A stretch of DNA of 16,693 nucleotides, from the NCBI GenBank assembly GCA_011049295.1, contig DSCA01000203.1:1-16693 (forward strand), given 5' to 3'. Position numbers and translations under genes: made by a program. The DNA is from Thermoplasmatales archaeon. GTDB taxonomy: Archaea; Thermoplasmatota; E2; UBA202; DSCA01. Positions 2,305-16,693 of this stretch are shown here, piece by piece. Below the pieces are notes generated by a model. That model searched no databases. It was not told the DNA's origin and saw nothing but the letters and a program-made list of their open reading frames with translations. Within the stretch, counting starts at the first letter, position 1, and every line of letters starts with the position of its first letter.

Positions 2305-2398
2305 GTGTCCACCATAAATTTTTTTTTACAAAAGTAAAGTAAATTTTATATTTAAGGCTTGCGGGAAGGTTTAAGAGGCAACTGCGTATTGAGCACCA
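2305..2398. promoter_or_regulatory. AT-rich bidirectional promoter region between the divergent DUF4430 operon (-) and the regulator gene (+)
   Basis: A 94-nt spacer at about 25% GC in a roughly 63% GC background. It contains tttttttttacaaaagtaaagtaaattttatatttaagg with TATA-like elements oriented toward both starts. Confidence 0.5.
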
Positions 2399-3214
2399 AT
2401 GGACCTGCTCAGAGAAAAATCCCTCTCCACCCAGGTGCTCATTTTGCTGGAAATAGTCACCGGTCACCACTCCCGCCTGGCCCCCATCGCCGCCAAAATC
2501 GGCATCACCAAGCAGGCGGTCTCAGACTACCTGAAAAAAATGCGGGAGGACGGGCTGGTGAGAATGGCCGACGGCGAATACCGGGCCACCATGCAGGGCA
2601 CCCAGTTCCTGCACGCTCAGCTGCTGGAGCTCAAGCGGTTCTTGGAAAGCAGTCTCCAGAAGCTGGACATCATCGAGCGAGGGATAGCCATGGCCGGCAA
2701 CCCCATCCGGGAGGGAGACACGGTGGGGCTGTTCATGGAGCAGGGCATGCTGACCGCCTACAGCGGAAAAACATCATCCTCGACGGGGGTTGCCGTGCAC
2801 GACGCCTCCCCCGGAGAGGAGATAGCCATCCGTCACCTGAACGGCATGGTGGCCCTGGAGATGGGAACGGTGTACATGCTGGAACTCCCCGGCCCCGGGG
2901 AGGGAGGCTCTCGGGCCCTGGACGTGGAGGGCGTAGCCTCCACGCTGGAGGAGCTGTCGCCCCACCTGGTGGGGGCGGCGGGGGCGGTGGCCAGAGCCGT
3001 GCTGCACAAAATAGGCCAGAAACCGGACCTGGAATTCGGCATAGCCCCGGCCACCGTGGAGGCGGCACAGCGGGGGCTGAGCGTGGCCCTGCTGGGCAGC
3101 AGCGACGAAATATCTCCAGTGCTGTCCGCCATCGAGGAGTTCAACCGCTCGTCGCCCAGACGCCTCCCCTGTCAGGTCATCCGTTTTTCTCCTAAAACTA
3201 TTAAAAAGAGATAG
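2399..3214 (+). CDS. Winged-HTH transcriptional regulator with an uncharacterised C-terminal domain of about 190 aa, 271 aa
   Basis: The N-terminal 75 aa (LSTQVLILLEIVTGHHSRLAPIAAKIGITKQAVSDYLKKMREDGLV) are a MarR/ArsR-like wHTH. I do not recognise the rest. The alternative-frame ORF 2359-3195 is Arg/Gly-rich and spurious. Confidence 0.7.
   Translation: MDLLREKSLSTQVLILLEIVTGHHSRLAPIAAKIGITKQAVSDYLKKMREDGLVRMADGEYRATMQGTQFLHAQLLELKRFLESSLQKLDIIERGIAMAGNPIREGDTVGLFMEQGMLTAYSGKTSSSTGVAVHDASPGEEIAIRHLNGMVALEMGTVYMLELPGPGEGGSRALDVEGVASTLEELSPHLVGAAGAVARAVLHKIGQKPDLEFGIAPATVEAAQRGLSVALLGSSDEISPVLSAIEEFNRSSPRRLPCQVIRFSPKTIKKR
3201..3208 (+). promoter_or_regulatory. TATA-like element (ttaaaaag) about 24 nt upstream of the ATG at 3228
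   Basis: It lies inside the last codons of the regulator gene. The spacing supports ATG 3228 rather than GTG 3219 as the start of the ligase. Confidence 0.35.
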
Positions 3215-3227
3215 CGATGTGGAAACC

Positions 3228-4769
3228 ATGACGCTCTACGACCTTCTGAAACGAGGGGAGCGCCTGCACGCCGACCGACCCGCCGTCCTGTTCGGGGACG
3301 AGGTGCTCACCTACCACAAACTCAGGGAGCAGGCAGACGCGGTGGCCTCCTCCCTCCTGGAGCTGGGCATACAAAAGGGCGACAAGGTGGGGGTGTGGCT
3401 GCCCAACAGCGGCCGCTTTCTCTCCCTGTATTTCGGCATCACCGCCGTGGGAGCCACCATGGTGCCCCTGAACACCCGGTATCGTGCCCATGAGGTGTCC
3501 TACATCCTGCGCAATTCAGAGGCCCGAGCCCTGTTCATGGTGCCCTCCTTCCTCAAAATGGATTACCGGGAGATGCTGGCCGAGGTGCGCCCCCAGCTGG
3601 AAGGCCTGCAGCACGTGGTGGCCGTTGATGCAGAGGACAGCAGCGACGACGTCGGCCTGTCCTGGAGGGAATTTGTGGCCGGGAGCCGGCACTGCGACCC
3701 CGAGGAGCAGAGGGCGGAAGACGAGGACGTGGCTCTCATCCTCTATACCTCGGGCACCACCGGCCAGCCCAAGGGGGTGATGCTCACCCACCGCAACCTG
3801 GCCACCAACGCCCGGGTGACCGGAGAGGTCATGGAGGTGACCCCGGAGGACCGCTATTTCGTGCCCCTTCCCCTGTTCCATTCCTTCGGCCTGGTGCTGG
3901 GATGCCTGACCCCTCTCACCTTTGGCAGCAGCATCGTGCTCCAGGACGTGTTCGACGCCCGGGAGGCCCTGGAACTCATGGAGAAACACCGGTGCACCAT
4001 GAACTTCGGGGTACCCACCATGTTCATGCTGGAGCTGGAGGAGATGAGAAAGAGTTCCTACCACCTGTCTCTGCGCAGCGGCATGATGGGCGGCGCCCCC
4101 TGCCCCATAGAGGTGGTGAAGGGGGTACGCCAGGAGATGGGCTGCAACGTGTGCATCGGCTACGGCATCACCGAGACCTCCCCCCTCATCTCGCTCACCC
4201 GCTACCACGATGACGACGTCCAGCGGGCGGAAAGCGTGGGCCGGCCCCTTCCCGGGGTGGAGGTGCGAATCGTGGACGACCAGTGGAGGACCCTCCCGGA
4301 CGGGGAAATTGGGGAAATCGCCATTCGGGGCAACGTTATGAAGGGCTACTACCGGATGCCCGAGGCCACCCGGGAGGCCGTGGACGACCAGGGCTGGTAC
4401 TACAGCGGAGACCTGGGAAAAATGGATGCACAGGGCTACCTGTACATCACCGGGCGGAAAAAAGACATGATTGTGGTGGGAGGATTCAACGTCTATCCCC
4501 GGGAAATCGAGGAAGTGCTGTTCACTCATCCCGGGGTCCAAAACGTGGCCGTCATCGGGGTTCCCGACCCCCGGCTGGGGGAGGCGGTCAAGGCATGCAT
4601 CGTCCCCCGCGGCCAGGTGAGCAAAGAGGACATCAGGGAGTTCTGCCGCCAGAGGATGGCCAACTTCAAGGTGCCCACGTACGTGGAATTCATGGACTCC
4701 TTCCCCATGACGGCCAGCGGAAAGATTCAGAAGTACAAGTTGAGGGAGCAGCATGACCCATCCCAGTGA
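3228..4769 (+). CDS. AMP-forming acyl-CoA synthetase/ligase (ANL superfamily, FadD-like), about 513 aa
   Basis: Canonical motifs YTSGTTGQPKGV, GYGITE, YYSGDLG and GRKKDMIVVGGFNVYPREIE. The track's start at 3219 is GTG. I prefer the in-frame ATG at 3228 (MTLYDLL...). Confidence 0.9.
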   Translation: MTLYDLLKRGERLHADRPAVLFGDEVLTYHKLREQADAVASSLLELGIQKGDKVGVWLPNSGRFLSLYFGITAVGATMVPLNTRYRAHEVSYILRNSEARALFMVPSFLKMDYREMLAEVRPQLEGLQHVVAVDAEDSSDDVGLSWREFVAGSRHCDPEEQRAEDEDVALILYTSGTTGQPKGVMLTHRNLATNARVTGEVMEVTPEDRYFVPLPLFHSFGLVLGCLTPLTFGSSIVLQDVFDAREALELMEKHRCTMNFGVPTMFMLELEEMRKSSYHLSLRSGMMGGAPCPIEVVKGVRQEMGCNVCIGYGITETSPLISLTRYHDDDVQRAESVGRPLPGVEVRIVDDQWRTLPDGEIGEIAIRGNVMKGYYRMPEATREAVDDQGWYYSGDLGKMDAQGYLYITGRKKDMIVVGGFNVYPREIEEVLFTHPGVQNVAVIGVPDPRLGEAVKACIVPRGQVSKEDIREFCRQRMANFKVPTYVEFMDSFPMTASGKIQKYKLREQHDPSQ

Positions 4770-5931
4770 CGACCTCCGGGGGAGCTCCTCGGACAAACTG
4801 CGGGGAAAAACCGTGGTCCTGGGCGTCACCGGCAGCATCGCCGCCGTGGAGAGCGTCAAACTGGCCCGGGAGCTGACCCGGCACGGGGCCCGGGTGATTC
4901 CGGTGATGAGCCCCGCGGCCTGCCGCATCCTGCACCCCGACGCCCTGTGGTTTGCCACGGGCAGAAAGCCGGTCACCGACCTGACCGGGGACGTGGAGCA
5001 CGTCCGCCACTGCGGACGGCGAGAGAACCAAGCGGATATGCTGCTGGTGGCCCCCTGCACCGCCAACACCCTGTCCAAAATAGCCCTGCGGATAGACGAC
5101 ACCCCGGTGACCACCATGGCCACCACCGCCGTGGGCTCCGGCCTGCCGGCGCTGCTGGTCCCCGCCATGCATGCCGCCATGTACGACAATCCCTTCGTCA
5201 GGGACAACCTGCAGAGGTGCCGGGAGCAAGGCATCCATCTCGCCGACCCCCGCCGGGCAGAGGGAAAAGCCAAGATGCCGGAGATGGAGGACGTCGTGGC
5301 CCGGGTGCTGCGCCTGCTGGGAAAAAACGACTGGGCGGGAAAGCAGGTGCTGGTGGTGGGCGGGGCCACCGCCGAATACCTGGACCCGGTACGGGTGCTC
5401 ACCAACCGGTCATCGGGAAAAATGGCCCTGGCCCTGGCCGCCGCGGCCTACCAGCGGGGGGCGGAAGTGGAACTCTGGCACCACGGACTGAACCCCCCTG
5501 CTTACCTCAGCAGTAGCACCTTTACCACCAGCGTTGACCTGGTGCGCCGCGTCCAGCAGGCCGGCCGGTACCACTGCATCATCAACTGCGCCGCCATCAC
5601 CGACTTCACCTGCCGAGCCCAGGAGAGAAAAATGGCCTCCGGCCAGCCCCTGGACCTGCACCTAGAGCCGGTGCCCCGGATCAATCCCCTGCTGAGGGAG
5701 CACGCCAACCTGCTGGTGGGCTTCAAGCTGGAAACCGACCGGGAGCGGGCCCTGGAGCGGGCCTGGGAGACGCTGCACCGGGACGGGCTGGACTACGTGG
5801 TGGCCAACACCACGGCCTCCCTGGGAGGAGACGACGCCCAGGCCTGGATTATAGACCGGGAGAAAAACACCACGCCGGCCAGCGGAGCCAAATCCCAGGT
5901 GGCGGACAGACTCCTGGACCTCATACGATGA
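4753..5931 (+). CDS. coaBC: Bifunctional phosphopantothenoylcysteine decarboxylase / phosphopantothenate-cysteine ligase (CoaBC/Dfp), 392 aa
   Basis: N-terminal flavoprotein domain (KTVVLGVTGSIAAVES, PCTANTLSKIA) and C-terminal CoaB domain (GGATAEYLDPVRVLTNRSSGKMA). It overlaps the upstream ligase gene by 17 nt. Confidence 0.9.
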   Translation: MTHPSDDLRGSSSDKLRGKTVVLGVTGSIAAVESVKLARELTRHGARVIPVMSPAACRILHPDALWFATGRKPVTDLTGDVEHVRHCGRRENQADMLLVAPCTANTLSKIALRIDDTPVTTMATTAVGSGLPALLVPAMHAAMYDNPFVRDNLQRCREQGIHLADPRRAEGKAKMPEMEDVVARVLRLLGKNDWAGKQVLVVGGATAEYLDPVRVLTNRSSGKMALALAAAAYQRGAEVELWHHGLNPPAYLSSSTFTTSVDLVRRVQQAGRYHCIINCAAITDFTCRAQERKMASGQPLDLHLEPVPRINPLLREHANLLVGFKLETDRERALERAWETLHRDGLDYVVANTTASLGGDDAQAWIIDREKNTTPASGAKSQVADRLLDLIR

Positions 5932-6764
5932 ATGCCATCGCCTTTGCCCCCGCCCATGTCACCGGCTTTTTTGAAATATGCCGCACCTCCTCCCCGGAGA
6001 CCACCGGCTCCCGGGGGGCTGGTCTCTGCCTGTCCCTGGGGGCCACGGCCAGCGTGGAGCGCAGCGATCACACAGAGGTTATGGTAAACGGCCGTCCCGG
6101 GGGGGAGGTCACCGCCACCGCCCTCCGCCTGCTCACCCCGGAACCCCTCCGTGCCCATGTCACCCTGGACTTGCCCGTCTCCCAGGGCCTGGGGATGAGC
6201 GCCGCCGGAACCCTGGCCTCCACCCTGGCCGCTGCCTCCCTGCTGTGGCTGCCCCGGAAACGGGCGGTGGCCGCGGCTCACGTGGCCGAGGTTCGCTGCT
6301 CCACCGGCCTGGGAGACGTGCTGGCGGCGGCCCGGGGAGGGATAGAGGTACGGCTATCGCCGGGGCTGACCGGAGAAATCATCGGGGTGCCCGGAGGAGG
6401 GGAGGTGGTGGTGGCCGTGGTGGGCCCCCCGCTGCCCACCGTACAGGTGGTGACCGACGACCGGCAGGGGCAGCACATCTCCCGGGTGGGGAGACGATGC
6501 GTGGAGGACATGCTGCGCCGGCCCACCCTGGACAACCTGTTTTTTTTGTCCCGGCGGTTTGCCGAGGAAACAGGGCTCCTGCAGCCGGCGGTGGGGGCGG
6601 CAGTGGAGGCAGCGGCGGAGCATAGCCGGGTCTCCATGTGCATGCTGGGAAACGCGGTGTTTGCCATGGGGGACACTCCCGCCCTGCAGGAGGCGCTGGC
6701 CGGGCACGGAGACGTATACACCTGCCGTGTAGCGCAGAGAGGAGCCCGGCTCATCGGCCACTGA
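5928..6764 (+). CDS. GHMP-family kinase, probably archaeal pantoate kinase (PoK), 278 aa
   Basis: GHMP motif II PVSQGLGMSAAGTLASTLAAA. ATGA stop/start overlap with coaBC. Size and context fit COG1829 pantoate kinase, but archaeal GHMP shikimate kinase is not excluded. Confidence 0.65.
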   Translation: MNAIAFAPAHVTGFFEICRTSSPETTGSRGAGLCLSLGATASVERSDHTEVMVNGRPGGEVTATALRLLTPEPLRAHVTLDLPVSQGLGMSAAGTLASTLAAASLLWLPRKRAVAAAHVAEVRCSTGLGDVLAAARGGIEVRLSPGLTGEIIGVPGGGEVVVAVVGPPLPTVQVVTDDRQGQHISRVGRRCVEDMLRRPTLDNLFFLSRRFAEETGLLQPAVGAAVEAAAEHSRVSMCMLGNAVFAMGDTPALQEALAGHGDVYTCRVAQRGARLIGH

Positions 6765-6788
6765 GGTGGCCGTCAAAATTCGACAACG

Positions 6789-6796
6789 TTTTATAG
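6789..6796 (+). promoter_or_regulatory. TATA box (ttttatag) about 24 nt upstream of the ATG at 6816
   Basis: Near-consensus archaeal TATA in the 51-nt spacer after the PoK stop. Confidence 0.45.
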
Positions 6797-6815
6797 GCCG
6801 TACGGGTTTTTCGCC

Positions 6816-6989
6816 ATGGTCATTTTCGGCGTTCCCCTGTGGCTGCTGCTTCTCGTGGTCATTGCGGTCGTTCTCATCGGTTGGAAACTGGTGAAGTTTG
6901 CCCTCACCCTGCTGCTGTTGCTCATCCTGGTGCTGGGCATTCTGATGGTGGCAGACCTGATATGGCCCCACCTGACGTCGCTGTTCTAG
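6816..6989 (+). CDS. Small hydrophobic protein, 57 aa, two predicted TM helices; not in the ORF track
   Basis: ATG..TAG ORF encoding MVIFGVPLWLLLLVVIAVVLIGWKLVKFALTLLLLLILVLGILMVADLIWPHLTSLF. It has its own TATA at -24 and coding-like GC3 bias. It sits in a 265-nt gap that no credible ORF otherwise covers. Confidence 0.45.
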   Translation: MVIFGVPLWLLLLVVIAVVLIGWKLVKFALTLLLLLILVLGILMVADLIWPHLTSLF

Positions 6990-7001
6990 ACCCGGATTAA
7001 C

Positions 7002-7010
7002 TCTTTAAAC
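7002..7010 (+). promoter_or_regulatory. TATA-like element (tctttaaac) about 24 nt upstream of the hutI ATG at 7030
   Basis: AT-rich element in the 40-nt spacer. Confidence 0.35.
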
Positions 7011-7029
7011 AGCCGCCCATTTACCTCTT

Positions 7030-8208
7030 ATGATTCTCATCAGGGAGGCCAGCGAGGTTTTTCTGCCTGACGGCGTGGCCACCCATGCCTCGGTGCTGAT
7101 TGAGGATGGACGCATACGGGACATCGGACGGCAGGTGACGGCCCGGGGGGCGGAGGTCATCGACGCCCGGGGCAAGACCCTGCTGCCCGGCTGGGTGGAC
7201 AGCCACACCCACGTGGTGTTCGCCGGCTCCCGGGAATTCGAGCTGGACCTGAAGCTCCAGGGTGCCACCTACCGGGAGATTGCCGCCCGGGGGGGAGGCA
7301 TCGGCTACACGGTGCAGCAGACCCGCCGGGTGTCGGAGGAGAGGTTGCAGGCAGAGGCGGAGTTGCGCCTGGACGCCATGCTGGCCCACGGGACCACCAC
7401 CGCCGAGGTGAAAAGTGGCTACGGCCTGGACACCAAAAGTGAGGTCAAGATGCTGCGGACGGTCCGCCACCTGAACGAGCGGCATCCCGTGGACCTGGTT
7501 CCCACCTTCATGGGTGCCCACGCCATACCTCCGGGCGTGGACCGGGAGGATTACGTCAGACTGGTGAGGGAGGAGATGATTCCCCGGGTGGCGGAGGAGC
7601 AGCTGGCCGTGTTCTGCGACGTCTTCTGCGAGGAGGGATACTTCAGCGTGGAGGAGTCACGGGCCATCCTGCAGGCGGGGCGGGAGCACGGCCTGACCCC
7701 CCGGGTGCACGCCGACGAGCTCTCCGACTCCGGGGGGGCGGAGCTGGCGGCCGAGCTGAAGGCGGCCAGCGCCGACCACCTCCTCATGGCCTCCCCCCGG
7801 GGGCTGAAAAAAATGGCCCGGGCCGGGGTGCCCGCCGTGCTGCTCCCCGCGGTTCCCTTTTCCCTGATGCAAAAGAGGTACGCCCCCGCCCGGAAGATGC
7901 TGGAGCTGGGACTGGATGTGGCCCTGGCCACCGACCTCAATCCCAACTGCTGGACGGAAAACATGCAGTTCGTCATCCAGCTGGCCTGCTTTGCCATGGG
8001 CATGACCCCCCGGGAGGCCATCCACGGAGCCACCCTGGGGGGGGCCAGGGTGCTGGGTCTGGAACGGGAGGTGGGCAGCATCGAGGTGGGCAAAAAGGCC
8101 GACCTGCTGCTGGTCAATGCCCCCTCCCATCTGTTCGTCCCCTACCACTTCGGGGTGAACCTGGTGGAGACGGTCATCAAGGACGGCGTGGTGGTATGCG
8201 GGGGGTAG
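7030..8208 (+). CDS. hutI: Imidazolonepropionase (HutI, amidohydrolase superfamily), 392 aa
   Basis: Collinear with bacterial HutI: LLPGWVDSHTHVVFAGSREFELDLKLQGATY, GGGIGYTVQQTR, TTTAEVKSGYGL, PVDLVPTFMGAHAIPP, HADEL..GGAELAAELKAASADHL, ADLLLVNAPSHLFVPYHFGVN. Confidence 0.85.
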   Translation: MILIREASEVFLPDGVATHASVLIEDGRIRDIGRQVTARGAEVIDARGKTLLPGWVDSHTHVVFAGSREFELDLKLQGATYREIAARGGGIGYTVQQTRRVSEERLQAEAELRLDAMLAHGTTTAEVKSGYGLDTKSEVKMLRTVRHLNERHPVDLVPTFMGAHAIPPGVDREDYVRLVREEMIPRVAEEQLAVFCDVFCEEGYFSVEESRAILQAGREHGLTPRVHADELSDSGGAELAAELKAASADHLLMASPRGLKKMARAGVPAVLLPAVPFSLMQKRYAPARKMLELGLDVALATDLNPNCWTENMQFVIQLACFAMGMTPREAIHGATLGGARVLGLEREVGSIEVGKKADLLLVNAPSHLFVPYHFGVNLVETVIKDGVVVCGG

Positions 8209-8825
8209 CACTGGTCTCCGGAGGGATTGACTCCCCGGTGGCCCTGTACGTGATGGCCCGTCACATGGAATGCCTGGCCCTGCACATGGACACCCGCCCC
8301 TTCCTGCCCATGGACGAGAGGGGCAAGGTGGCATCCCTGGTGCGGCGGGTGGCGGAGGCGGCGGGGAGGCAGATACCGCTGTGGCACGTGCCCTTCGGCG
8401 AGGTGGTGCAGAGGGCCATCGCCGCCCACACCCGCCCCCACTACCACTGCCTGCTGTGCAAGCGCATGATGTACCGGGTGGCGGCGGCCCTGGCCGGGCA
8501 GCAGCGGGCATCCGTGGTGGTCACCGGAGAAAACCTGGGCCAGGTGGCCTCCCAGACTCTGCACAACCTGCGGGTGCTGGAGGAAAGCATCGACCTGCCC
8601 GTGGTGCGCCCCCTGATTGGGCTGGACAAGCAGGAAATCGTGGACCTGGCCCGGCACATCGGCACCTACCAGCTGTCCATCGAGGAGGCGCCCTCCTGCC
8701 TGCTGGTGCCGGACGCCCCGGCCACCGCCGCCGCCCTGGAGGCCGTGCACGCCGAGGAGGAAAATCTGGACGTGGCCGGGCTGACGGCCCGGGCATTAAA
8801 GGAAGCGCGCATGGAGAAACTTTAA
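8196..8825 (+). CDS. Stand-alone ThiI-type PP-loop ATPase domain protein (tRNA-sulfurtransferase catalytic domain; no THUMP or rhodanese domain), 209 aa
   Basis: PP-loop ALVSGGIDSPVA at the very N-terminus, plus ThiI hallmarks TGENLGQVASQTLHNLRVLE and RPLIGLDKQEIVDLARHIGTY. It has a CxxC (HCLLCKRMMY) like methanogen ThiI. It overlaps hutI by 13 nt. Confidence 0.8.
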   Translation: MRGVALVSGGIDSPVALYVMARHMECLALHMDTRPFLPMDERGKVASLVRRVAEAAGRQIPLWHVPFGEVVQRAIAAHTRPHYHCLLCKRMMYRVAAALAGQQRASVVVTGENLGQVASQTLHNLRVLEESIDLPVVRPLIGLDKQEIVDLARHIGTYQLSIEEAPSCLLVPDAPATAAALEAVHAEEENLDVAGLTARALKEARMEKL

Positions 8826-8833
8826 AAAATAAA
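8821..8833 (+). promoter_or_regulatory. TATA element (tttaaaaaataaa) about 24 nt upstream of the tRNA-Val 5' end
   Basis: It overlaps the stop codon of the ThiI-like gene. The spacing is right for the mature 5' end at 8851. Confidence 0.45.
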
Positions 8834-8850
8834 CGCCCATTATAGCAGAG

Positions 8851-8924
8851 GGGCTCTTGGTCTAGCTGGTTATGACGTCGCCTTGACATGGCGGAGGTCC
8901 TGGGTTCGAATCCCAGAGAGCCCA
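8851..8924 (+). tRNA. tRNA-Val (anticodon GAC), 74 nt, no encoded CCA
   Basis: Manual fold: acceptor GGGCTCT/AGAGCCC, D-loop with A14 and G18G19, anticodon stem TCGCC/GGCGG with loop TTGACAT (U33, GAC, A37), 5-nt variable loop, T-arm CTGGG-TTCGAAT-CCCAG, discriminator A. Confidence 0.9.
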
Positions 8925-8966
8925 CTGGTGGCACGAGGGGAGCCGGGGCGCCCGCCCATGAACAAG

Positions 8967-9004
8967 TTTTATATAGGCCAGAGTCAATAGTAAATGGGAG
9001 GTGA
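8967..9004 (+). promoter_or_regulatory. TATA box (ttttatatag, 8967-8976) plus a strong SD (GGGAGGTGA, 8996-9004) upstream of the ATG at 9008
   Basis: Unlike most genes in the window, this one has a canonical SD 3 nt before the ATG. Confidence 0.5.
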
Positions 9005-9007
9005 AAA

Positions 9008-9421
9008 ATGAGGAGAATAATGGCCACGGCTGCGGCGGTGCTGGTGGCGGCAGCAGCCCTGATGCCCGCCCTGGTGACAGAGGCAGAGGCTGGCACCCTG
9101 GACGGAGTGGACATCAGATGGGAGGGACGGCATCTGGTGGTCACCAACAACAACGACTATTCCATCTACAACCTGTGGGTGGGAAACCTGACCCTCACCG
9201 GCTTTATAGTGTTCGGACGGATGATTGGCTTCAACACCACCATATCTGAGGTCCTCCCCGGCGCCAGTTGCTCCCTTTCCCTGGGAACGGGCATGCTCTT
9301 CGGTTTCGGTCCCGCCAGGCTGACCGTCGTGGTTTCCTACCTCGACCAGGGGGAGCAGGTGAGCCAGGAGGCCACCACCAGCCTCTTCCTGCTGGGCCCC
9401 TTCACCCTGTTCCTGGGGTAA
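9008..9421 (+). CDS. Small secreted/exported protein of unknown function (signal peptide, hydrophobic C-terminus), 137 aa
   Basis: N-terminus MRRIMATAAAVLVAAAALMPALVTEAEA-GT looks like a cleavable signal peptide. A beta-rich middle follows. The C-terminus SLFLLGPFTLFLG is hydrophobic. Confidence 0.6.
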   Translation: MRRIMATAAAVLVAAAALMPALVTEAEAGTLDGVDIRWEGRHLVVTNNNDYSIYNLWVGNLTLTGFIVFGRMIGFNTTISEVLPGASCSLSLGTGMLFGFGPARLTVVVSYLDQGEQVSQEATTSLFLLGPFTLFLG

Positions 9422-9463
9422 AAAACTGACTGCCGTACGGGAATCGGACACCCTGCGCTATTC

Positions 9464-9473
9464 TTAAATATAT
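9464..9473 (+). promoter_or_regulatory. TATA box (ttaaatatat) about 24 nt upstream of the ATG at 9493; leaderless
   Basis: Near-consensus TATA. No SD. Confidence 0.5.
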
Positions 9474-9492
9474 CCGCCCGCATCCCACCCCC

Positions 9493-10119
9493 ATGACCCG
9501 CTACGAGCTGGTGGCCCTGGACATGGACGGCGTGCTGGTAGACATGCGCAGCTCCTGGCGCTACATCCACACCTGCTTCGCCACCGACAACAGAGACACC
9601 GTGCAGGCCTACCTGCGAGGCGACATCGGCAGCCGGGAGTTCATGGAGCGGGACATCGCCCTGTGGCGCCGAGCCAACCGGTGCCGGGCGGACCTGGAAA
9701 AGGCCTTTGACCGGGTGGCCATCATGCCGGGAGCCCGGGAGTGCATCCAGGCGCTGCACGAGCAGGGCGTGGCCACCGCCATCGTGTCCGGCGGACTGGA
9801 CATCCTGGCCCGGCGCATCGCCGCCCAGACCGGCATCCGTCACGTGCTGGCCAACGGCATCCACGGCGAGCTGGAGGGCAGCATAACGAGGGTGCCCATC
9901 GAGGACAAGGGCATGGCGGTGCGGGACCTGGCCACAGAGCTGGGGGTACCAAGAGAGCGGGTGGCGGCGGTGGGCAACTCCCGCTACGACATCTCCATGT
10001 TTGAGGCGAGCGGCCTAGGCATCGCCTTCAATCCCTGCGACCAGCAGGTGGTGGAGGCCGCGGACGTGGTTATCAAAGAAAAAGATTTAACCAGACTTCT
10101 TGATTACCTGCTGGCATGA
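9493..10119 (+). CDS. HAD-superfamily hydrolase, subfamily IB (phosphoserine-phosphatase-like), 208 aa
   Basis: Motif I LVALDMDGVLVD, motif II IVSGG, C-terminal VGNSRYDISMFEASGLGIAFNP (a GDGxND variant), as in SerB-like phosphatases. Confidence 0.8.
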   Translation: MTRYELVALDMDGVLVDMRSSWRYIHTCFATDNRDTVQAYLRGDIGSREFMERDIALWRRANRCRADLEKAFDRVAIMPGARECIQALHEQGVATAIVSGGLDILARRIAAQTGIRHVLANGIHGELEGSITRVPIEDKGMAVRDLATELGVPRERVAAVGNSRYDISMFEASGLGIAFNPCDQQVVEAADVVIKEKDLTRLLDYLLA

Positions 10120-10736
10120 TTTCCTTCAATCTGCTGGTGCTGTTCATCGCGGCCCTGGTCTTCTATCTCCTGTTCTCCCTGTTTTACGGGGCCTTCGTGG
10201 AGGTGGGGTTCTCCCGGCTGGAGGCCAGCCTGATCGTGTTTGGCTCCCTGCTGCTGGGCCTGGTGGACATCTATCTTTTCACCTATGGAAACTGGCGGAT
10301 TGCGGTGAACATAGGCGGGGCGGTGATTCCGGTGATGGTCAGCGTCTACCTGACGGCCAAGAGAAAATTCGTGGGCCGGGCCCTGCTGGGCATCGCTCTG
10401 GTGTCCCTGTTCACCTACCAGGTCACCGAGGTGACCACCCGGGGTATCTCCTCCCCCTTTCCCCTCTGGCTCCTGCCCCCGGCGGTGGCCAGCCTGTTCT
10501 CCCTGCTGGCCTGCTACCGGAAGCCCAGGCAGGCGGCGCCCCTGGCCTACGTGACCGGAACCCTGGGGGTGCTGGTGGGAGCGGACTTTTTCCACCTGCC
10601 GGAGCTGCTGCGCCTGCCCACCCCCCAGACGGTCACCGCCTCCATCGGGGGAGCGGCCATCTTCGACATGGTGTTTCTGGCGGGCATCATCGCCGTGCTC
10701 ATCGACTCCCTGTTCATGGCCCGCCGACAGGGATAA
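10116..10736 (+). CDS. Integral membrane protein of about 6 TM helices, unknown function (resembles the DUF1614-type archaeal/bacterial family), 206 aa
   Basis: ATGA overlap with the HAD gene. Highly hydrophobic, with NIGGAVIP and SIGGAAIFD repeats that suggest an internal duplication. The alternate-frame ORF 10100-10747 is Gly/Pro/Arg-rich and spurious. Confidence 0.7.
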   Translation: MISFNLLVLFIAALVFYLLFSLFYGAFVEVGFSRLEASLIVFGSLLLGLVDIYLFTYGNWRIAVNIGGAVIPVMVSVYLTAKRKFVGRALLGIALVSLFTYQVTEVTTRGISSPFPLWLLPPAVASLFSLLACYRKPRQAAPLAYVTGTLGVLVGADFFHLPELLRLPTPQTVTASIGGAAIFDMVFLAGIIAVLIDSLFMARRQG

Positions 10737-10738
10737 AC

Positions 10739-10746
10739 ATTTATTA
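10739..10746 (+). promoter_or_regulatory. TATA-like element (atttatta) about 25 nt upstream of the ATG at 10768; leaderless
   Basis: It starts 3 nt after the stop of the membrane-protein gene. Confidence 0.45.
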
Positions 10747-10767
10747 GGCAAGCCTATTTGTCCTTTC

Positions 10768-11070
10768 ATGATAATTGCGGAACTGGCCATCTTTCCCACC
10801 TCGGAGGGAACATCGGTGAGCCGCTACGTGAAGGCCGCCGTGGAGGCGCTGGAGGAGACGGGGCTGACCACCCACACCGGCCCCATGGCCACCTGCATCG
10901 AGGGTCCGGATCTGTCTGCCATTCTGCGGGCGGTGGAAAGGGCCCACCGGGCCATGGTGGACATGGGTGCCCGGCGCATCCATATCGACCTCCGCATTGA
11001 CCACCGCCTGGACAAGGAGGCCACCATGGCCGCCAAGCTGGCATCCATTGGAAAGGGTGACCATGCATAG
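10768..11070 (+). CDS. MTH1187/YkoF-family protein (UPF0045; thiamine/HMP-binding-like ferredoxin fold), 100 aa
   Basis: MIIAELAIFPTSEG...SVSRYVKAAVEALEETGL...TGPMATCIEGP is the characteristic N-terminal strand, G-rich loop and helix of the MTH1187/YkoF family. Size matches. Confidence 0.75.
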   Translation: MIIAELAIFPTSEGTSVSRYVKAAVEALEETGLTTHTGPMATCIEGPDLSAILRAVERAHRAMVDMGARRIHIDLRIDHRLDKEATMAAKLASIGKGDHA

Positions 11071-12019
11071 CCTGTGGGTGGAGAAGTACCGTCCGGAAAC
11101 ACTGGACCAGGTGGTGGGGCAGGTGGGGGTGGTGGACAGCCTGCGGGCCTACGCGGCGTCGGGCAGCATTCCCCACCTGCTGTTTGCGGGGCCGGCGGGA
11201 ACCGGCAAGACCACCTGTGCCATCGCCCTGGCCAAGCAGCTGTACGGCGAGACTTGGAGGGACAACTTCGAGGAGCTGAACGCCAGCGACGAGCGGGGCA
11301 TAGACGTGGTACGGGGAAAAATCAAGAACTTCGCCCGCACCGCCCCCCTAGGGGAGGCCTCCTTCAAGATTATTTTTCTGGACGAGGCGGATTCCCTGAC
11401 CCCGGACGCCCAGTCCGCCCTCCGCCGCACCATGGAGCGCTACGCCCGCATCTGCCGCTTCATCCTCTCCTGCAACTACTCCTCTAAAATCATTGACCCC
11501 ATCCAGTCCCGGTGTGCGGTGTTCCGCTTCTCCCCCATCGACCGGGAGGACATGCGATGCCATCTCTCCCGGGTGGCCCAGCGGGAGGGGCTGGAGATAA
11601 CCGGGGACGGCATGGAGGCCCTGCTGTACATAGCCCGGGGGGACCTGCGCAAGGCCCTCAACGCCCTGCAGACCTCGGCCACCCTCTCCCAGACCATAGA
11701 TGCCGACTCGGTGTACTGCACCACGGCCACGGCCCGGCCCGAGGAGGCCCAGCAGGTGATGGAGGTGGCCCTGCGGGGAAACTTTCTGGAGGCCCGGGCC
11801 CTCCTGGACAAGATGCTGATTGACTACGGGCTGAGCGGGGAAGACGTCATCAAGGGCATGCACAGCGCCCTGTTCGACCTGCCCATCCCGGAAAAGGCCA
11901 AGGCGGACATCGTGGAAAAGATGGGAGAGGCGGAGTTCCGCATGGTGGAGGGGAGCAACGAGCGCATTCAGATTGAGGCGCTACTGGCCCATCTGGCGAT
12001 GGCGGGGAGAGCGCGATGA
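11063..12019 (+). CDS. rfcS: Replication factor C small subunit (clamp-loader AAA+ ATPase), 318 aa
   Basis: MHSLWVEKYRPETLDQVVGQ (RFC box II), Walker A LLFAGPAGTGKTT, Walker B IIFLDEADSLT, SRC motif PIQSRCAVFRF. A GGGTGA SD lies 4 nt upstream. The true start is ATG 11063. The track's GTG 10967 start runs through the upstream gene in another frame. No intein. Confidence 0.9.
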   Translation: MHSLWVEKYRPETLDQVVGQVGVVDSLRAYAASGSIPHLLFAGPAGTGKTTCAIALAKQLYGETWRDNFEELNASDERGIDVVRGKIKNFARTAPLGEASFKIIFLDEADSLTPDAQSALRRTMERYARICRFILSCNYSSKIIDPIQSRCAVFRFSPIDREDMRCHLSRVAQREGLEITGDGMEALLYIARGDLRKALNALQTSATLSQTIDADSVYCTTATARPEEAQQVMEVALRGNFLEARALLDKMLIDYGLSGEDVIKGMHSALFDLPIPEKAKADIVEKMGEAEFRMVEGSNERIQIEALLAHLAMAGRAR

Positions 12020-13620
12020 AAAAGGCGGACCTGCCCCTCGTCCGGTGGGATCGGGTGCAGGAACGCTCCTATCAGATTAACGTTTTTGAGCAGGTGAAGG
12101 ACCGGAAATCCCTGGTGGTGCTGCCCACCGGGCTGGGGAAGACCATCATTGCCATCCTGGTGCTGGCCTACCGGGCGGAGCGGGGGCGCATCCTGTTTCT
12201 GGCGCCCACCAAGCCCCTGTGCGAACAGCATGCGGTCTCCATATCCCGGCTGACCTCCCTGGAGCCGGTGGTGGTCACCGGGGAGCTGTACGGCCCGGAC
12301 CAGAGGAAGGAGATATATCGCCGGGGAGAGGTGGTGGTGGCCACCCCGCAGACCGTGGAGAACGACCTGGACCGGGGCGTCAATCCGGGTGACTTCAGCC
12401 TGATTGTGTTTGACGAGGCCCATCGGGCGGTGGGCAGCTACGCCTACGTGGGAATCGCCCGGCGCTATCTGCGGCGGGGCAGCCAGATACTGGGCATGAC
12501 CGCCTCACCGGGGAGCGATTACAAAAAACTGAGGGAGGTGGCGGACCATCTGGGCATCGAGCACGTGGAGCTGCGCACCGAGCAGGACCCCGACGTGCAG
12601 CCCTACCTGGCCCAGCGAAGGATGCGCTGGGTGCTGGTGGACATGCCGGAGGAGGTGAAGCGCATTGTGCGCCGCCTGGACGTCATGCTCACCGATTTTT
12701 TGGCCGAGCTGGCCACCTACACCCGGCAGGCCCGTAACCTGTCGGCGGGCAAGCTGAGCAAAAAGGCGCTCATCGACATCCAGAGCCGGATGCGGAGTCA
12801 TCTGGGGAAGCGGGGGGGCTCCATGTACAAGGCCATCAGCGTGGTCTCCGCCGCCATCAAGCTGGCCCATCTCAAGGACATGCTGACCAGTCAGGGTGTG
12901 GAGGCCGCCCAGAGCTACCTGGCCAAGCTGGAGTTCGACCGGTCCAAGGCGGCGGCCAGCATCCGCAAGCACCGGCTGTATCCATCCATCCGGCGGGACA
13001 TCGTGACCCTGGAGGCGCAGCGGCCCAAGCTGGAGAAGACCCGGGACATTCTCCTTCAGCACCTGGAGCGCCACCCGGACGGACGGGTCATCCTGTTTGC
13101 CGAGTACCGGGACACCATCGATTTTTTGCTGAGGGCCATCCAGAGCCTTCCCGGGGTGAGGGCCCGCAGATTCATCGGCCAGGCCCGGGGCGCCAACGAC
13201 GGCATGAGCCAGGAGGAACAGAAGGAGACCCTGCAGGCCTTCCGGGAGGGGGAGTTCAACGTTCTGGTGTCCACCAGCATCGGCGAGGAGGGCATCGACG
13301 TGCCGGCCACCACCCTGGTGCTGTTCTACGAGCCCGTACCCTCGGCCATCCGGGCCATCCAGCGGCGGGGGCGGACCGCCCGGGACGGGGTGCCGGGCAT
13401 GGTGGTCATCCTGATTATGAAGGGCTCCCGGGACGAGGCCTACTACTGGAGCAGCAGGGGCAAGGAGAAGAAGATGTACCAGCAGATTGCCCGGCTGAAG
13501 CGGGAGCTGGAAACAGCGGAGACCCCGTCCGGGTGGCATCCCTCCCCGCCGAAAAAAAGGGAGAAGGTGCCCACCGACCAGCGGGGGCAGAGCCGGCTGG
13601 ACAGCTTTTATCCCGGGTAG
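12016..13620 (+). CDS. Hef/FANCM-family SF2 helicase (helicase module only; no XPF/ERCC4 nuclease or HhH2 domain), 534 aa
   Basis: Motif I VLPTGLGKT, II VFDEAHRAVG, III LGMTASPG, VI QRRGRTARDG, with a roughly 200-aa helical insertion between the RecA lobes as in Pyrococcus Hef. The protein ends about 10 aa after the helicase core. ATGA overlap with rfcS. Confidence 0.85.
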   Translation: MKKADLPLVRWDRVQERSYQINVFEQVKDRKSLVVLPTGLGKTIIAILVLAYRAERGRILFLAPTKPLCEQHAVSISRLTSLEPVVVTGELYGPDQRKEIYRRGEVVVATPQTVENDLDRGVNPGDFSLIVFDEAHRAVGSYAYVGIARRYLRRGSQILGMTASPGSDYKKLREVADHLGIEHVELRTEQDPDVQPYLAQRRMRWVLVDMPEEVKRIVRRLDVMLTDFLAELATYTRQARNLSAGKLSKKALIDIQSRMRSHLGKRGGSMYKAISVVSAAIKLAHLKDMLTSQGVEAAQSYLAKLEFDRSKAAASIRKHRLYPSIRRDIVTLEAQRPKLEKTRDILLQHLERHPDGRVILFAEYRDTIDFLLRAIQSLPGVRARRFIGQARGANDGMSQEEQKETLQAFREGEFNVLVSTSIGEEGIDVPATTLVLFYEPVPSAIRAIQRRGRTARDGVPGMVVILIMKGSRDEAYYWSSRGKEKKMYQQIARLKRELETAETPSGWHPSPPKKREKVPTDQRGQSRLDSFYPG

Positions 13621-15014
13621 CCCCCGATGTGCAGGCTGGGGTCGCCCAGCAGCACCCATTCCTGCACGGTTTTGGCGTCCAGGGCGGTGTCGTGGAAGGC
13701 CTGCTGGCTCCAGTCTACGGGAAACTCGTCCAGGTAGGAGGAGATGGCCTGCCGCCAGGCGTCGCCCAGCACCTGCTGCCCCTGCTGCCCGTAGGCGTGG
13801 AAAAACAGCACGTTGAGGTGGTCGCCGCCTCCCTCCGTGGCCTCCTGCTTGTCCTCCCTGCCGTAGCCCAGGCCAGTGCAGCCCAGGGTGGCTATGGCTC
13901 CGCCGTTGGTGCAGCGGGTGAGACGCCACCCCCAGCATTCGTAGACGGGGAGGCCGAAGGTCCAGGTGGTATGGGTGAGACTGATGTTGAACATGCAGTT
14001 GTGGCATCCGCCCACCACGCACACCGGCAGCCAGTGGCCGTTGGTGAGCAGGGGCATGTGCAGGTTCTGCAGCCCGTAGATCCACACCGAGTCGTCGTAG
14101 GGGGGATGGGTGGCCCAGGTGGTGGGGCTGCCGTGGCCGGCGAAGAATAAAAAGCCGCAGCCCTGGTTGATGGTGCCCACCACGTCCCGCCAGCCCTGCA
14201 GGGAGCCGTCCGAGGTGTACAGGGTAACCGGGGTGAAGTCGGTCATGTGCTCCAGGGCCTGCCGGGTGACCTCCTCTCCCTCGAAGTAGTCGTTGAAGGT
14301 GTAGGTGTCCCCGGCCACCGCCACCATGCGCTGGAACCAGCCGGGGTCGGCGGGGGTGCTCTCGTAGGAGATGATTTTGTTCACCATGATGTCCACCTCC
14401 CGGGCGTTGCGGCAGGGAAGCCGGCCCACGGCCACCTCCGGGTAGAGGTCGGCTACATCCTCGGCCGGCTGGCGGGCCCGCCACTCGCCGTAGATGCCGT
14501 CTCCATCGGTGTCCCAGGATGAAAAGGTGCCATTGCGGTCGTAGATGTCGGCAAAGTACAGGTCGCTGATATACCGTTTTTCCTGGGTGGCCACGTTGTC
14601 CTCGATGTGGCTGTACCGCACGGGCAGCCACCAGGGCTCGCCGCTCAGCGAGGGGCGCCGCCCCCCCACCAGCAACAGGTAGGATATGTTCCAGGTGTCC
14701 AGGGCATATCGGACAAAGTACTTTATCTGCTCCGCCTGGTCCCGGCCCTGCACCGGGGTGTAGGTTCCCCCGTAGATGTCCTCCAGGGTGACCGTCAGGG
14801 TGGCCAGGCCCCTGTTGTCCTTGTGCTCCGTCAGGGGGGCCAGGTGTGCCTCCCAGGCCGCCGGGGTGACCACCAGCAGGTCATACCGGTCGGTGACCGG
14901 CTGGGCCTCCCACCGCACCCGGTCCCCCTGAAGGGGAACGGTGGTCAGGGCGGTCAGGGAGCCGGACATGACCAGGACGCCCAGCGCCACCATCACGATT
15001 GTTTTTCCAGACAT
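13608..15014 (-). CDS. Secreted clan-CD cysteine peptidase, C25/gingipain-like, 468 aa
   Basis: Signal peptide MSGKTIVMVALGVLVMSGSLTA. The clan-CD pattern is a hydrophobic strand plus His-Gly (FLFFAGHGSPTTW) followed by a hydrophobic strand plus Cys (LPVCVVGGCHNCMF). A GGAGG SD lies 6 nt upstream on the minus strand (15021-15025). The gene converges on the Hef gene with a 13-nt overlap. Confidence 0.6.
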   Translation of the reverse strand: MSGKTIVMVALGVLVMSGSLTALTTVPLQGDRVRWEAQPVTDRYDLLVVTPAAWEAHLAPLTEHKDNRGLATLTVTLEDIYGGTYTPVQGRDQAEQIKYFVRYALDTWNISYLLLVGGRRPSLSGEPWWLPVRYSHIEDNVATQEKRYISDLYFADIYDRNGTFSSWDTDGDGIYGEWRARQPAEDVADLYPEVAVGRLPCRNAREVDIMVNKIISYESTPADPGWFQRMVAVAGDTYTFNDYFEGEEVTRQALEHMTDFTPVTLYTSDGSLQGWRDVVGTINQGCGFLFFAGHGSPTTWATHPPYDDSVWIYGLQNLHMPLLTNGHWLPVCVVGGCHNCMFNISLTHTTWTFGLPVYECWGWRLTRCTNGGAIATLGCTGLGYGREDKQEATEGGGDHLNVLFFHAYGQQGQQVLGDAWRQAISSYLDEFPVDWSQQAFHDTALDAKTVQEWVLLGDPSLHIGGYPG

Positions 15015-15117
15015 GCTGTGCCTCCACTACCATAAGCCGCAGGGCCTAAAAATGGTTTTCCCTCGCGCATCACCGGCCCGAGGTTAGCGTTAAGTAGCCC
15101 CCACCGTTTTTATCCCC

Positions 15118-16212
15118 ATGACCTCCTGCGCACTGGACATCCGGGAGCTCTCCCGGGTTTTTGACGGGGAAAGCAGGCCCACCTATGTCAGCCTCTACTC
15201 CGACGGCACCGACCCCCGGTTCATACACCGGCGCCGGCAGGCCATCCGATCCGCCCTGCCCTCCCACCTGCGGGAAAACTTCCAGCAGACCATGCAGGAA
15301 GTCACTCGCTACCTGAATGACCACGGCAGCCGCAACGTGGCCCTTTTTGCCTCCGCCGCCCATGATTTTTTCAAGGCGGTGAGCCTGACCGATGCACCCC
15401 CCAACCTCCTGGTGGTGGACTCCTCCCCCTACATTCGCCCCCTGGCCGCCCTGGACGACCAGTGGGAGGGATTCACCCTGGTGCTCATGAACACCCATCA
15501 CGCCAAAATATACAGCGTGGCCTGCAGCGACATCGCCCGGGAAAAAGAGCTCTCCCGGGAGGTGATGAACAAGCACAAAAAGGGAGGCATGTCCCAGGCC
15601 CGGTTCCAGAGGCTGCGCAGGGGCAGCATCCACCACTTTTACCAGGACCTCAGGGGGGCCCTGCCGGCCCCGGGCAGCCAGAAAATCATCCTGGCCGGCC
15701 CCGGAGAGGCCAAGCACCAGTTCCTCCACCATCTGTCCCCGCCTCTGCAGGAAAACGTGGTGGCCCTCATCGATGCCCCCATGGACGGCGAGCAGGAGCT
15801 GTGGGAGGACTCCATCCACGCCATGCGCGAGCACGGTCAGGAGGTGAAAGGACGCCTGCTGGACCAGCTGAAGAAGGAGATACTGACCGACGGACTGGCC
15901 GCCTACGGCGTCTCCGAGGTCACCCGGGCCACCCGCAACGGTCAGGTGGAAGTGCTGTTCGTGGAGCGGGGACACCGGCAGCGGGGCTGGCTGTGCGAGC
16001 GATGCCAGCGCCTGGGGACAGGCACCGCCCCCTCCTGCCCCACCTGCGGGAAGCCGGTAACCACCGTGGACGTGCTGGAGGAAATCATGGAGTTTGCTCA
16101 GCGTACCGGCGCCCCTGTCACCTTCGTGGATGACGACTTTGTGGGGCAGATGGGCCACGTGGCAGCTCTTCTCCGCTATCGAACCGAGAATACAGGAGAG
16201 GCGGTGGCCTGA
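15118..16212 (+). CDS. eRF1/Pelota-superfamily paralogue with degenerate GGQ (GGM-SQ), no NIKS motif and a C4 zinc-ribbon insertion in the C-terminal domain, 364 aa
   Basis: Central domain aligns with eRF1 domain 2: KHKKGGMSQARFQRLRR versus eRF1 KHGRGGQSALRFARLR, and KIILAGPGEAK versus LVLAGSADFK. The C-terminal domain ends FVDDDFVGQMGHVAALLRY versus eRF1 FVSDKS.EG.QF.KGFGGIGGILRY, and is interrupted by CERCQRLGTGTAPSCPTCGK. The N-domain has an eRF1-like YVSLYSDGTDP but none of the stop-codon-recognition motifs. Confidence 0.8.
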   Translation: MTSCALDIRELSRVFDGESRPTYVSLYSDGTDPRFIHRRRQAIRSALPSHLRENFQQTMQEVTRYLNDHGSRNVALFASAAHDFFKAVSLTDAPPNLLVVDSSPYIRPLAALDDQWEGFTLVLMNTHHAKIYSVACSDIAREKELSREVMNKHKKGGMSQARFQRLRRGSIHHFYQDLRGALPAPGSQKIILAGPGEAKHQFLHHLSPPLQENVVALIDAPMDGEQELWEDSIHAMREHGQEVKGRLLDQLKKEILTDGLAAYGVSEVTRATRNGQVEVLFVERGHRQRGWLCERCQRLGTGTAPSCPTCGKPVTTVDVLEEIMEFAQRTGAPVTFVDDDFVGQMGHVAALLRYRTENTGEAVA

Positions 16213-16238
16213 CCCCCCGGCGGCTGACTGTGCTGGCC

Positions 16239-16693
16239 ATGCCCTGGGCGCTGCTGGCCAGCACCTACCTGGCGTTTGTGGGACTGGAGGAACTGCTGGG
16301 ACCCACCCGGGGCTATTTGGCGGCCTTTGTGGTGTACTGGGTGGGCTGGTGCCTCCTGTTTCCCCTGTGGTTTCTGGGAAAAAAAGAGCTGAAACGTGTG
16401 CTCTCCCCGGTGAGGTTTTCCCGCAGCGGGGCGATGGCCGGGGGCCTGGTGCTGCTGGCAGTGCCGCCGGTGCTGGCCCTGGCCACGGTCTTTGTGACAA
16501 AGATTCCTCAGGCCACCGTGGCCGTGGTTCTGGGGTCCCTGGGCCTGGCGGCGGTAAACGGGACGGCCGAGGAGGTGCTGTGGCGCGGGGTCTACATCCG
16601 GGAGTTTCCCGGAGACATGCTCAGAGGATTCCTGTATCCCACTCTGGGTTTCGCCCTGTGGCATCTCGCCCCCCAGGCGGTGCATCCCCTGTC
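16239..16693 (+). CDS. CPBP-family (CAAX protease / Abi) intramembrane metalloprotease, 3'-truncated by the window edge
   Basis: The open frame from ATG 16239 encodes 3 TM helices, then CPBP motif 1 AEEVLWRGVYIRE and motif 2 GFALWHL. The track does not list it because there is no stop in the window. It lies 26 nt after the eRF1-like gene. Confidence 0.7.
   Translation, partial: MPWALLASTYLAFVGLEELLGPTRGYLAAFVVYWVGWCLLFPLWFLGKKELKRVLSPVRFSRSGAMAGGLVLLAVPPVLALATVFVTKIPQATVAVVLGSLGLAAVNGTAEEVLWRGVYIREFPGDMLRGFLYPTLGFALWHLAPQAVHPL

Follow-up and report, generated by a model that had tools for sequence, protein, structure and literature searches.

A release factor paralogue without stop-codon-reading motifs in Thermoplasmatales archaea as a candidate Balon-like factor of idle or stalled ribosomes

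The stretch of DNA analyzed here, called the window throughout, is a 16,693-nucleotide piece of contig DSCA01000203.1 of a Thermoplasmatales archaeon (GenBank assembly GCA_011049295.1, positions 1 to 16,693, forward strand), and it carries a complete gene for a 364-residue paralogue of the archaeal release factor aRF1 (Table 1). The gene product is a three-domain, tRNA-shaped protein that belongs, as an archaeal representative, to family 10 of the bacterial archaeo-eukaryotic release factors (baeRF-1) in the aeRF1 superfamily. It is probably a non-terminating, ribosome-directed paralogue acting at the A site of idle or stalled ribosomes. The function that we favor, with a probability of about 0.45, is that of a hibernation factor similar to bacterial Balon. 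A sequence-only reading of the same DNA had proposed an eRF1-family factor that targets ribosomes without terminating translation, and a ribosome-directed role independent of stop codons is also the consensus prediction of the literature.

The gene is real. NCBI, JGI, ENA and Logan contain a protein 100% identical to that of the window, on 12 contigs, and a homologue search at E<=1e-3 gave 602 sequences. The long antisense open reading frame (ORF) at 15070-16500 is a shadow ORF of GC-rich DNA. The best Pfam match was PF18854 (Bacterial archaeo-eukaryotic release factor family 10) with 66.6 bits for a cutoff of 27.1, followed by eRF1_2 (48.2 bits), acVLRF1 (41.0 bits, cutoff 27.1) and eRF1_3; in the M-domain, baeRF_family10 spans aa 104-230, eRF1_2 aa 119-228 and acVLRF1 aa 136-228. 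Relatives scored 73-112 bits against PF18854, with the archaeal P0136 at 112 and the bacterial P0208 at 110. Among the NCBIfam models the aRF1 equivalog TIGR03676 came first, then three Balon families, then Pelota, all below threshold: 94.1 bits for TIGR03676 (cutoff 234.7), 46.3, 43.1 and 38.3 bits for the Balon models NF052287/8/9 (cutoffs 330, 320 and 480) and 22.9 bits for the Pelota model TIGR00111 (cutoff 177.65). The TIGR03676 match was limited to aa 101-355 (model positions 116-402), leaving the N-domain unmatched, which fits a paralogue that shares its M- and C-domains with aRF1 and is not a terminator. The closest PDB sequences were H. salinarum aRF1 (4af1), over the M- and C-domains, and Balon Rv2629 (8v9k), over nearly the full length. 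Rv2629 itself matched baeRF_family2 best (145 bits) and family 10 second. Current database labels, ‘Vms1/Ankzf1 family peptidyl-tRNA hydrolase’ at NCBI for the identical protein and ‘peptide chain release factor subunit 1’ at JGI for relatives, are unsupported guesses.

The protein consists of the N-, M- and C-domains, the last with a zinc ribbon, and of no additional ones. In the predicted fold the whole model matches both aRF1 and Balon, the best superposition being with ribosome-bound Balon, and the N-domain has the eRF1 N fold. The earlier view that the protein is not a Pelota is borne out by this N-domain and by the low TIGR00111 score, and a true Pelota gene coexists with the family gene in three loci (see below). 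None of the stop-codon-reading determinants NIKS, YxCxxxF and GTS was found in the whole 364-residue sequence, and in a family member the NIKS region of H. salinarum aRF1 pairs with unrelated sequence; every stop-codon-reading motif has been lost from the N-domain of the window protein. Relative to classical aRF1/eRF1 (TIGR03676; structures 4af1 and 3agk), the N-domain is also ~30-40 residues shorter and the catalytic Gln is replaced, whereas the M- and C-domains are collinear, the catalytic loop aligns without gaps, the zinc ribbon lies at the same site, and the AGPG patch and the GILRY-type motif are kept. Conservation was scored on an alignment of 51 relatives that are 43-81% identical to the window protein. 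In the linker between the N- and M-domains, D101, P104, Y105 and L109 are invariant, and conservation reaches at least 90% at V100, S103, R107 and P108; the AGPG patch (aa 193-196) has G194 and G196 invariant and A193 and P195 conserved to at least 90%. The C-terminal GHVAALLRY has G346 and L352 invariant and H347 and R353 at least 90% conserved, and its family consensus, GH[VI][GA][AG][LI]LR[YF], is one of the two most conserved stretches of the family. The corresponding GILRY motif has been implicated in the interaction of eRF1 with the carrier GTPase eRF3 and is kept in aRF1 and aDom34 (PMC2613156).

The most informative part of the M-domain is the loop expected to face the peptidyl-transferase centre, which could be aligned without gaps to RKGGQSAQRFARLR of H. 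salinarum aRF1 and KHKMGGQSQRRYERI of A. pernix aRF1. It reads GGMSQ at aa 156-160, with Met158 at the position of the canonical catalytic Gln and Gln160 two residues further on. Loop residues H153, G156, G157, S159, Q160, R162, F163, R165 and R167 are invariant among the 51 relatives. Position 158 is occupied by Trp in 63 of the 120 closest homologues, by Met in 32, Cys in 18, Gln in six and Phe in one. Across the family it can be W, M, C, Q, F, L or S, Trp being the commonest residue (51-95% by clade) and Gln, which gives GGQSQ, being found in only ~5% of members. Because position 158 varies among homologues, Met158 is neither an artefact nor special. A sequencing artefact was rejected on two counts, the 12 independent contigs with the identical protein and the presence of Met in more than a quarter of the closest homologues. 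The M-domain has kept a loop of aRF1 length, GG-[W/M/C..]-SQ-x-R-F-x-R-x-R, in which the catalytic Gln has mostly been replaced by a bulky hydrophobic residue.

Gln160 is present in almost all of 150 distant representatives. It pairs with a position that is Ala or Gln in classical aRF1, the motif being GGQSA in H. salinarum and GGQSQ in both A. pernix and the crenarchaeal chain 8hku_ARF1. Going by these alignments, the simplest history would be an ancestral GGQSQ in which the first Gln was lost and the second became fixed. In the structure model a helix begins at residue 160, placing Gln160 at the helix start and not at the loop tip.

The protein has exactly four clustered Cys residues. All four are invariant in 120 of 120 close homologues and kept in most distant ones, and the segment that holds them pairs with C-x3-H...C-x2-C of H. 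salinarum aRF1. According to Burroughs & Aravind (PMC6514570), a zinc ribbon within the Pelota domain is the standard state of classical aeRF-1, and it has decayed to a two-strand insert in many bacterial families. As judged from the alignment, the ribbon is a retained ancestral aRF1 feature; the sequence-only reading had taken it for an insertion, which we correct here. That reading had been right about the presence of the GGMSQ loop and of the four Cys and about the lack of NIKS, and it had asked whether orthologs keep the loop and the ribbon: they do so for the Cys4, the GG and the SQ, but not for Met158.

The family is broad. At E<=1e-30, a profile search of 1.84 billion representatives returned 500 proteins, and at E<=1e-10 their number rose to 2547. 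Of the top 150, most have a clear GG[W/M/C/L/Q]S[Q/A] and nearly all the Cys4, and of those looked up some are bacterial (Candidatus Aminicenantes, WOR-3) and others belong to Thermoplasmata. A relative is encoded by 396 genomes among the GTDB species representatives. The best 80 of these 396 genome loci are all archaeal, mostly from Thermoplasmatota, and include Theionarchaea, Archaeoglobaceae, Methanophagales (ANME-1), Methanosarcinales and one Promethearchaeota metagenome-assembled genome (MAG). The host of the window is itself archaeal, with RFC small subunit, CoaBC, pantoate-kinase-like, ThiI and C25 peptidase genes as neighbors and with the identical protein in Thermoplasmatota MAGs. Subgroups were compared through motif-defined groups and bit-score gradients; a neighbor-joining tree of 152 sequences had saturated distances and invalid values and put aRF1 and Balon inside the family, and its topology was not used. 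On the bit-score scale, archaeal-type members are closer to H. salinarum aRF1 (median 49 bits) than the bacterial groups (14-26 bits). The window protein shares with the Aminicenantes and WOR-3 members of baeRF-1 family 10 the GG[W..]SQ loop and the Cys4 ribbon, and it has the well-conserved loop Gln (Q160) that Burroughs & Aravind (2019) describe for that family. It differs in that family 10 was defined as bacterial, arising through archaea-to-bacteria transfer, whereas the window host is an archaeon and the archaeal clade is large (at least 396 species representatives) and nearer to classical aRF1 than the bacterial clades are. In one Thermoplasmatales MAG (CAZFFN01), two family genes were seen on separate contigs (L046 and L070), which recalls the multi-copy Balon genes of bacteria.

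The family had been catalogued before (PF18854), and a ‘potential Balon’ was recently reported in Archaea (Nat Commun 2026; PMC13324472), so the branch is already known, contrary to the sequence-only reading, which had taken it for probably undescribed or poorly described. In that study, the candidates were chosen as proteins without NIKS or GGQ that form a monophyletic lineage separate from aeRF1 and Pelota, and were found in 30% of Methanosarcinia, 10% of Syntropharchaeia and several Thermoplasmatota lineages; every genome with a putative archaeal Balon also has aeRF1, and a hibernation role was proposed. The window lineage is very probably this one, as judged from matching selection criteria and distribution.

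Balon, one of the baeRF-1 lineages, is an mRNA-independent hibernation factor that binds the A site together with EF-Tu without breaking down peptidyl-tRNA, and its gene is often part of a stress operon (Helena-Bueno et al., 2024). The baeRF-1 and VLRF-1 clades were defined by Burroughs & Aravind (2019; PMC6514570), who expected those families in which the loop has degenerated to inhibit the A site without catalysis. With the known Balons (P. urativorans Balon, M. smegmatis MSMEG_1130 and M. tuberculosis Rv2629, baeRF_family2), the window protein has in common the three-domain fold and the lack of NIKS and GGQ. At the profile level its N-domain aligns with that of Rv2629 and not with that of aRF1. 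The Gly-Trp of Rv2629, a homologue of Balon with demonstrated A-site binding, faces Gly157-Met158, and Trp is the residue most often found at position 158 of the family. The carriers are energy-limited sediment archaea (Thermoplasmatota, ANME-1, Methanosarcinales, Theionarchaea, Archaeoglobaceae, Promethearchaeota). Seit-Nebi and coworkers are said to have found in 2001 that a hydrophobic substitution, Q185I, abolishes the release activity of human eRF1.

As a Balon-like factor, the family protein would enter the archaeal ribosomal A site without reading a codon. Its escort would probably be aEF1-alpha rather than EF-Tu because the host is archaeal, and aEF1-alpha reportedly carries both aRF1 and aPelota in archaea, as described by Saito and coworkers in 2010. 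This would bring the N-domain to the decoding centre and let the basic loop reach the peptidyl-transferase centre. Idle or arrested ribosomes of these slow-growing anaerobic archaea might in this way be occupied and protected during starvation or dormancy, with no efficient hydrolysis of peptidyl-tRNA, while termination would be left to a canonical aRF1 in the same cell.

Several observations weigh against such a role. The GG, SQ, R, F, R and R of the loop are invariant from archaea to bacteria, whereas the loops of proven Balons, GQAPQERAGQMREQRQ in MSMEG_1130 and AGWNGYGDFQH in Rv2629, are far less conserved and form a divergent lasso, and Burroughs & Aravind (PMC6514570) read the conserved loop of family 10 as indicating catalytic competence. 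The best Pfam family of the window protein is 10, not 2. Sequence comparison brings its M- and C-domains nearer to aRF1, with 94.6 bits, than to Balon, with 48-49 bits; the score stayed below the equivalog cutoff of each of the three Balon models (38-46 bits for 320-480 required), and its Cys4 zinc ribbon sits where Balon has the beta-hairpin that binds EF-Tu. The bL27 trap of Balon cannot apply because archaea do not have bL27. No conserved neighborhood of hibernation genes was found in the 83 archaeal loci surveyed. A dormancy-type context, which speaks for the Balon-like role, was seen at a single bacterial locus, that of the family 10 protein P0228 (L008 6741-11576, on a 2.78-Mb contig): the gene lies between two Usp genes, with a GAF-GAF-HisKA_3 sensor kinase, a LuxR-type response regulator and, nearby, a Pth gene, a DosS/DosR-like arrangement that resembles the dormancy context described for Rv2629. 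Two more bacterial loci and one archaeal-looking locus had an uninformative context, and literature searches brought up no experimental study of family 10 or the archaeal clade.

The same loop is an argument for a different function, that of a codon-independent rescue release factor that would enter the A site of a stalled 70S ribosome and cut the peptidyl-tRNA with its GG-x-SQ loop, much as ArfB/ICT1 or Vms1 do outside the archaea. We regard this as doubtful. The peptidyl-tRNA would be either hydrolyzed, by way of the backbone NH of residue 158 and/or Gln160, or cut near the CCA end in the manner of Vms1. The invariance of GG, S159, Q160, R162, F163, R165 and R167 at a loop length equal to that of aRF1 speaks for such an enzyme, non-catalytic relatives (Pelota, Balon) let the loop decay, and the ~5% of members with GGQSQ point the same way. 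Bacterial release factors are thought to catalyze via the backbone amide of the Gln, and a cited title (B52) states, as far as a title goes, that an eRF1 with a mutated Gln keeps some activity. Burroughs & Aravind single out family 10, with its conserved Gln, as a potentially active hydrolase, and report a GGxSQ motif also for aVLRF-1 and acVLRF-1, which resembles the GxuQ of Vms1 (PMC6514570). The Pfam acVLRF1 score is above its cutoff (41 for 27.1), and the NCBI label is that of a peptidyl-tRNA hydrolase.

Against rescue by cleavage, most members have Trp, Met or Cys in place of the canonical Gln, and Gln160, at the helix start, pairs with the non-conserved A/Q of classical aRF1. The N-domain has no obvious sensor of an empty mRNA channel, so unregulated hydrolysis would presumably be hazardous. 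Vms1 itself is not detectably similar: no Vms1 structure is among the sequence or fold matches listed for the window protein, and the NCBIfam acVLRF1 model gave 13.5 bits for a cutoff of 125. The full three-domain architecture is also unlike that of every described VLRF-1 family, as aVLRF-1 starts with a long coiled coil and is devoid of the Pelota domain, acVLRF-1 lacks the N-domain (PMC6514570), and the eukaryotic Vms1/ANKZF1 type has a Rei1-ZnF/ankyrin/VIM architecture. The likeness to Vms1 put forward earlier is upheld for the GGxSQ motif shared with aVLRF-1 and acVLRF-1 and not for Vms1 itself.

A further reading, which we think unlikely, is that the archaeal clade is more than an archaeal Balon, namely a surviving intermediate between aRF1 and the bacterial baeRF-1/Balon radiation, delivered by aEF1-alpha and independent of codons, whose GG-[W/M/C]-SQ loop still cleaves or releases peptidyl-tRNA on stalled 70S ribosomes. 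If this were true, ribosome rescue and quality control in archaea would gain the release step that they have been lacking, and the class-I release factor scaffold could work without its universal catalytic Gln.

It is quite improbable that the protein is a Pelota-like, non-catalytic splitting factor that attaches to stalled or vacant ribosomes and brings in ABCE1 for subunit dissociation. The window protein shares with aPelota/Dom34 the superfamily, the C-domain fold, the lack of the catalytic Gln and a predicted action independent of stop codons, and the C-domain type is the one that contacts ABCE1 in eRF1 and Pelota complexes (PDB 4crm and 3j15). In 16 of the 83 loci, the gene of ABCE1/RLI (NF009945, 877 bits; L019 6885-8654, minus strand), the ribosome-recycling partner of aRF1 and Pelota, lies upstream of the family gene and divergent from it, at a distance of ~1.5 kb. 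This proximity, however, is limited to one related set of Thermoplasmatota loci, where AlaDH, saccharopine dehydrogenase and Cas4-like genes are syntenic as well, and so looks like inherited gene order; ABCE1 is not present at the window locus itself. Pelota also differs in its N-domain and in a degenerate, truncated M-domain tip, and splitting does not need strict conservation of the loop. Moreover, L039 has, besides the family gene, a genuine gene for Pelota (TIGR00111, 389 bits; 5871-6899, plus strand, ~3 kb upstream on the same strand), and equivalent 342-residue ORFs matching the same aRF1 probe lie in L056 (5673-6701, plus) and L062 (5920-6948, plus), all three being loci of Archaeoglobaceae-type MAGs. 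A scan with aRF1 fragments of 1.27 Mb of flanking DNA from 88 loci, made in search of a canonical aRF1, recovered the family gene and these three Pelota genes only.

To our knowledge, TIGR03676 is a near-universal single-copy marker in archaea. That the window protein is the real, highly divergent aRF1 of its host can, on indirect evidence, practically be dismissed: TIGR03676 is its best NCBIfam match and JGI names its relatives accordingly, but the score is far below the cutoff with the N-domain unmatched, the NIKS, YxCxxxF, GTS and catalytic Gln are missing although genes of the window end in TAA, TAG and TGA, the family is patchy (396 species representatives in unrelated archaeal orders, plus bacteria), one MAG has two copies, and carriers of the putative archaeal Balon all have aeRF1 (PMC13324472).

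Table 1. Positions in the window of the release factor paralogue gene and of its protein features
Feature	Position	Strand	Basis or remark
aRF1 paralogue gene, complete, 364 aa	15118..16212	+	ORF from ATG to TGA; matches to PF18854, eRF1_2 and eRF1_3
N-domain, aa 1-103	15118..15426	+	minimal eRF1-type; without NIKS, YxCxxxF, GTS
N-M linker VDSSPYIRPL, aa 100-109	15415..15444	+	conserved; pairs with LSDYPYVVPL of Balon Rv2629
M-domain, aa 104-240, RNase-H-like release factor core	15427..15837	+	Pfam matches
Loop directed at the peptidyl-transferase centre, KHKKGGMSQARFQRLRRG, aa 152-169	15571..15624	+	gapless alignment to aRF1
C-domain, aa 245-355, eRF1 domain 3 / Pelota-type L7Ae-like fold	15850..16182	+	
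Cys4 zinc ribbon, C293, C296, C307, C310	15988..16074	+	in the C-domain, at the ancestral aRF1 ribbon site
GHVAALLRY	16153..16179	+	family form of the GILRY motif known from aRF1, eRF1 and Pelota

The gene neighborhood was surveyed in 83 non-redundant archaeal loci. An AlaDH/PNT-like gene lies 66 bp downstream of the family gene in 42 of them, a saccharopine dehydrogenase gene is a neighbor in 36, and a solo Cas4-like PD-(D/E)XK nuclease (160 aa) and an unannotated 92-residue ORF occur in 35 and 27, respectively, just upstream and divergent (in L006, 9081-9563 and 9611-9889, both on the minus strand). No further cas genes were visible beside the nuclease in those Thermoplasmatota loci. These recurrent neighbors look like inherited synteny within one Thermoplasmatota clade. 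PADLOC gave no match for the window protein, and a defence-system reading of the proposed ‘ribosome-targeting factor’ was rejected. In one locus (L007, 16885-18849), a LigT-like 2',3'-cyclic phosphodiesterase gene and a CCA-adding enzyme gene lie 6-7 kb downstream of the family gene; the pair is of interest for a Vms1-like tRNA cleavage, and its position is probably due to chance.

In the window, the gene is preceded by that of a C25 (gingipain-like) cysteine peptidase of 468 aa (13608-15014, minus strand), 104 bp upstream on the opposite strand, and followed 27 bp after its stop codon by a CPBP/Rce1-like membrane protease gene (16239-16693, plus strand) that runs past the window end. Linkage to these two genes, which had been put forward as a point to check, is not conserved beyond the window species: the C25 gene recurs in one other locus only (L060, 39% identity), and the CPBP gene in none. 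C25 peptidases are typical of protein-degrading sediment Thermoplasmatota. Assemblies of the same species disagree on the CPBP gene, which is called with 77, 91 or 203 aa in L001-L004; this points to frameshifts or to differences in assembly. In L001, beyond the window end and past the CPBP gene, a 1226-residue protein without Pfam match is encoded (11807-15487, minus strand), followed by exosome (Rrp4/41/42), L37ae, Pcc1 and SBDS genes. Elsewhere in the window, CoaBC (PPCS/PPCDC; 4753-5931, plus strand) overlaps by 4 nt a GHMP-family gene (5928-6764, plus strand) that scores 172 bits against the archaeal pantoate kinase model NF040725 (cutoff 380), and the pair resembles an archaeal coenzyme A module in which the kinase is divergent. 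The longest ORF of the RFC small subunit (10967-12019, plus strand, GTG start) overlaps the gene of a thiamine-binding protein (10768-11070, plus strand) by ~100 nt; a start at window position 11063 (318 aa), as in public gene calls, is more likely.

Ribosome hibernation and rescue in archaea are only now being mapped, and no release-factor-like factor acting at the A site in either process has been demonstrated in Archaea. The family described here is abundant among sediment archaea starved of energy (Thermoplasmatota, ANME-1/2). Bacterial Balon has its closest archaeal relative in this family, with M- and C-domains that are still nearer to aRF1, and for this reason the family is well suited to the study of how a termination factor was converted into a hibernation factor. 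It is equally suited to asking whether the invariant GG-x-SQ loop still catalyzes. The feature that most deserves attention is this invariant loop in an otherwise Balon-shaped protein.

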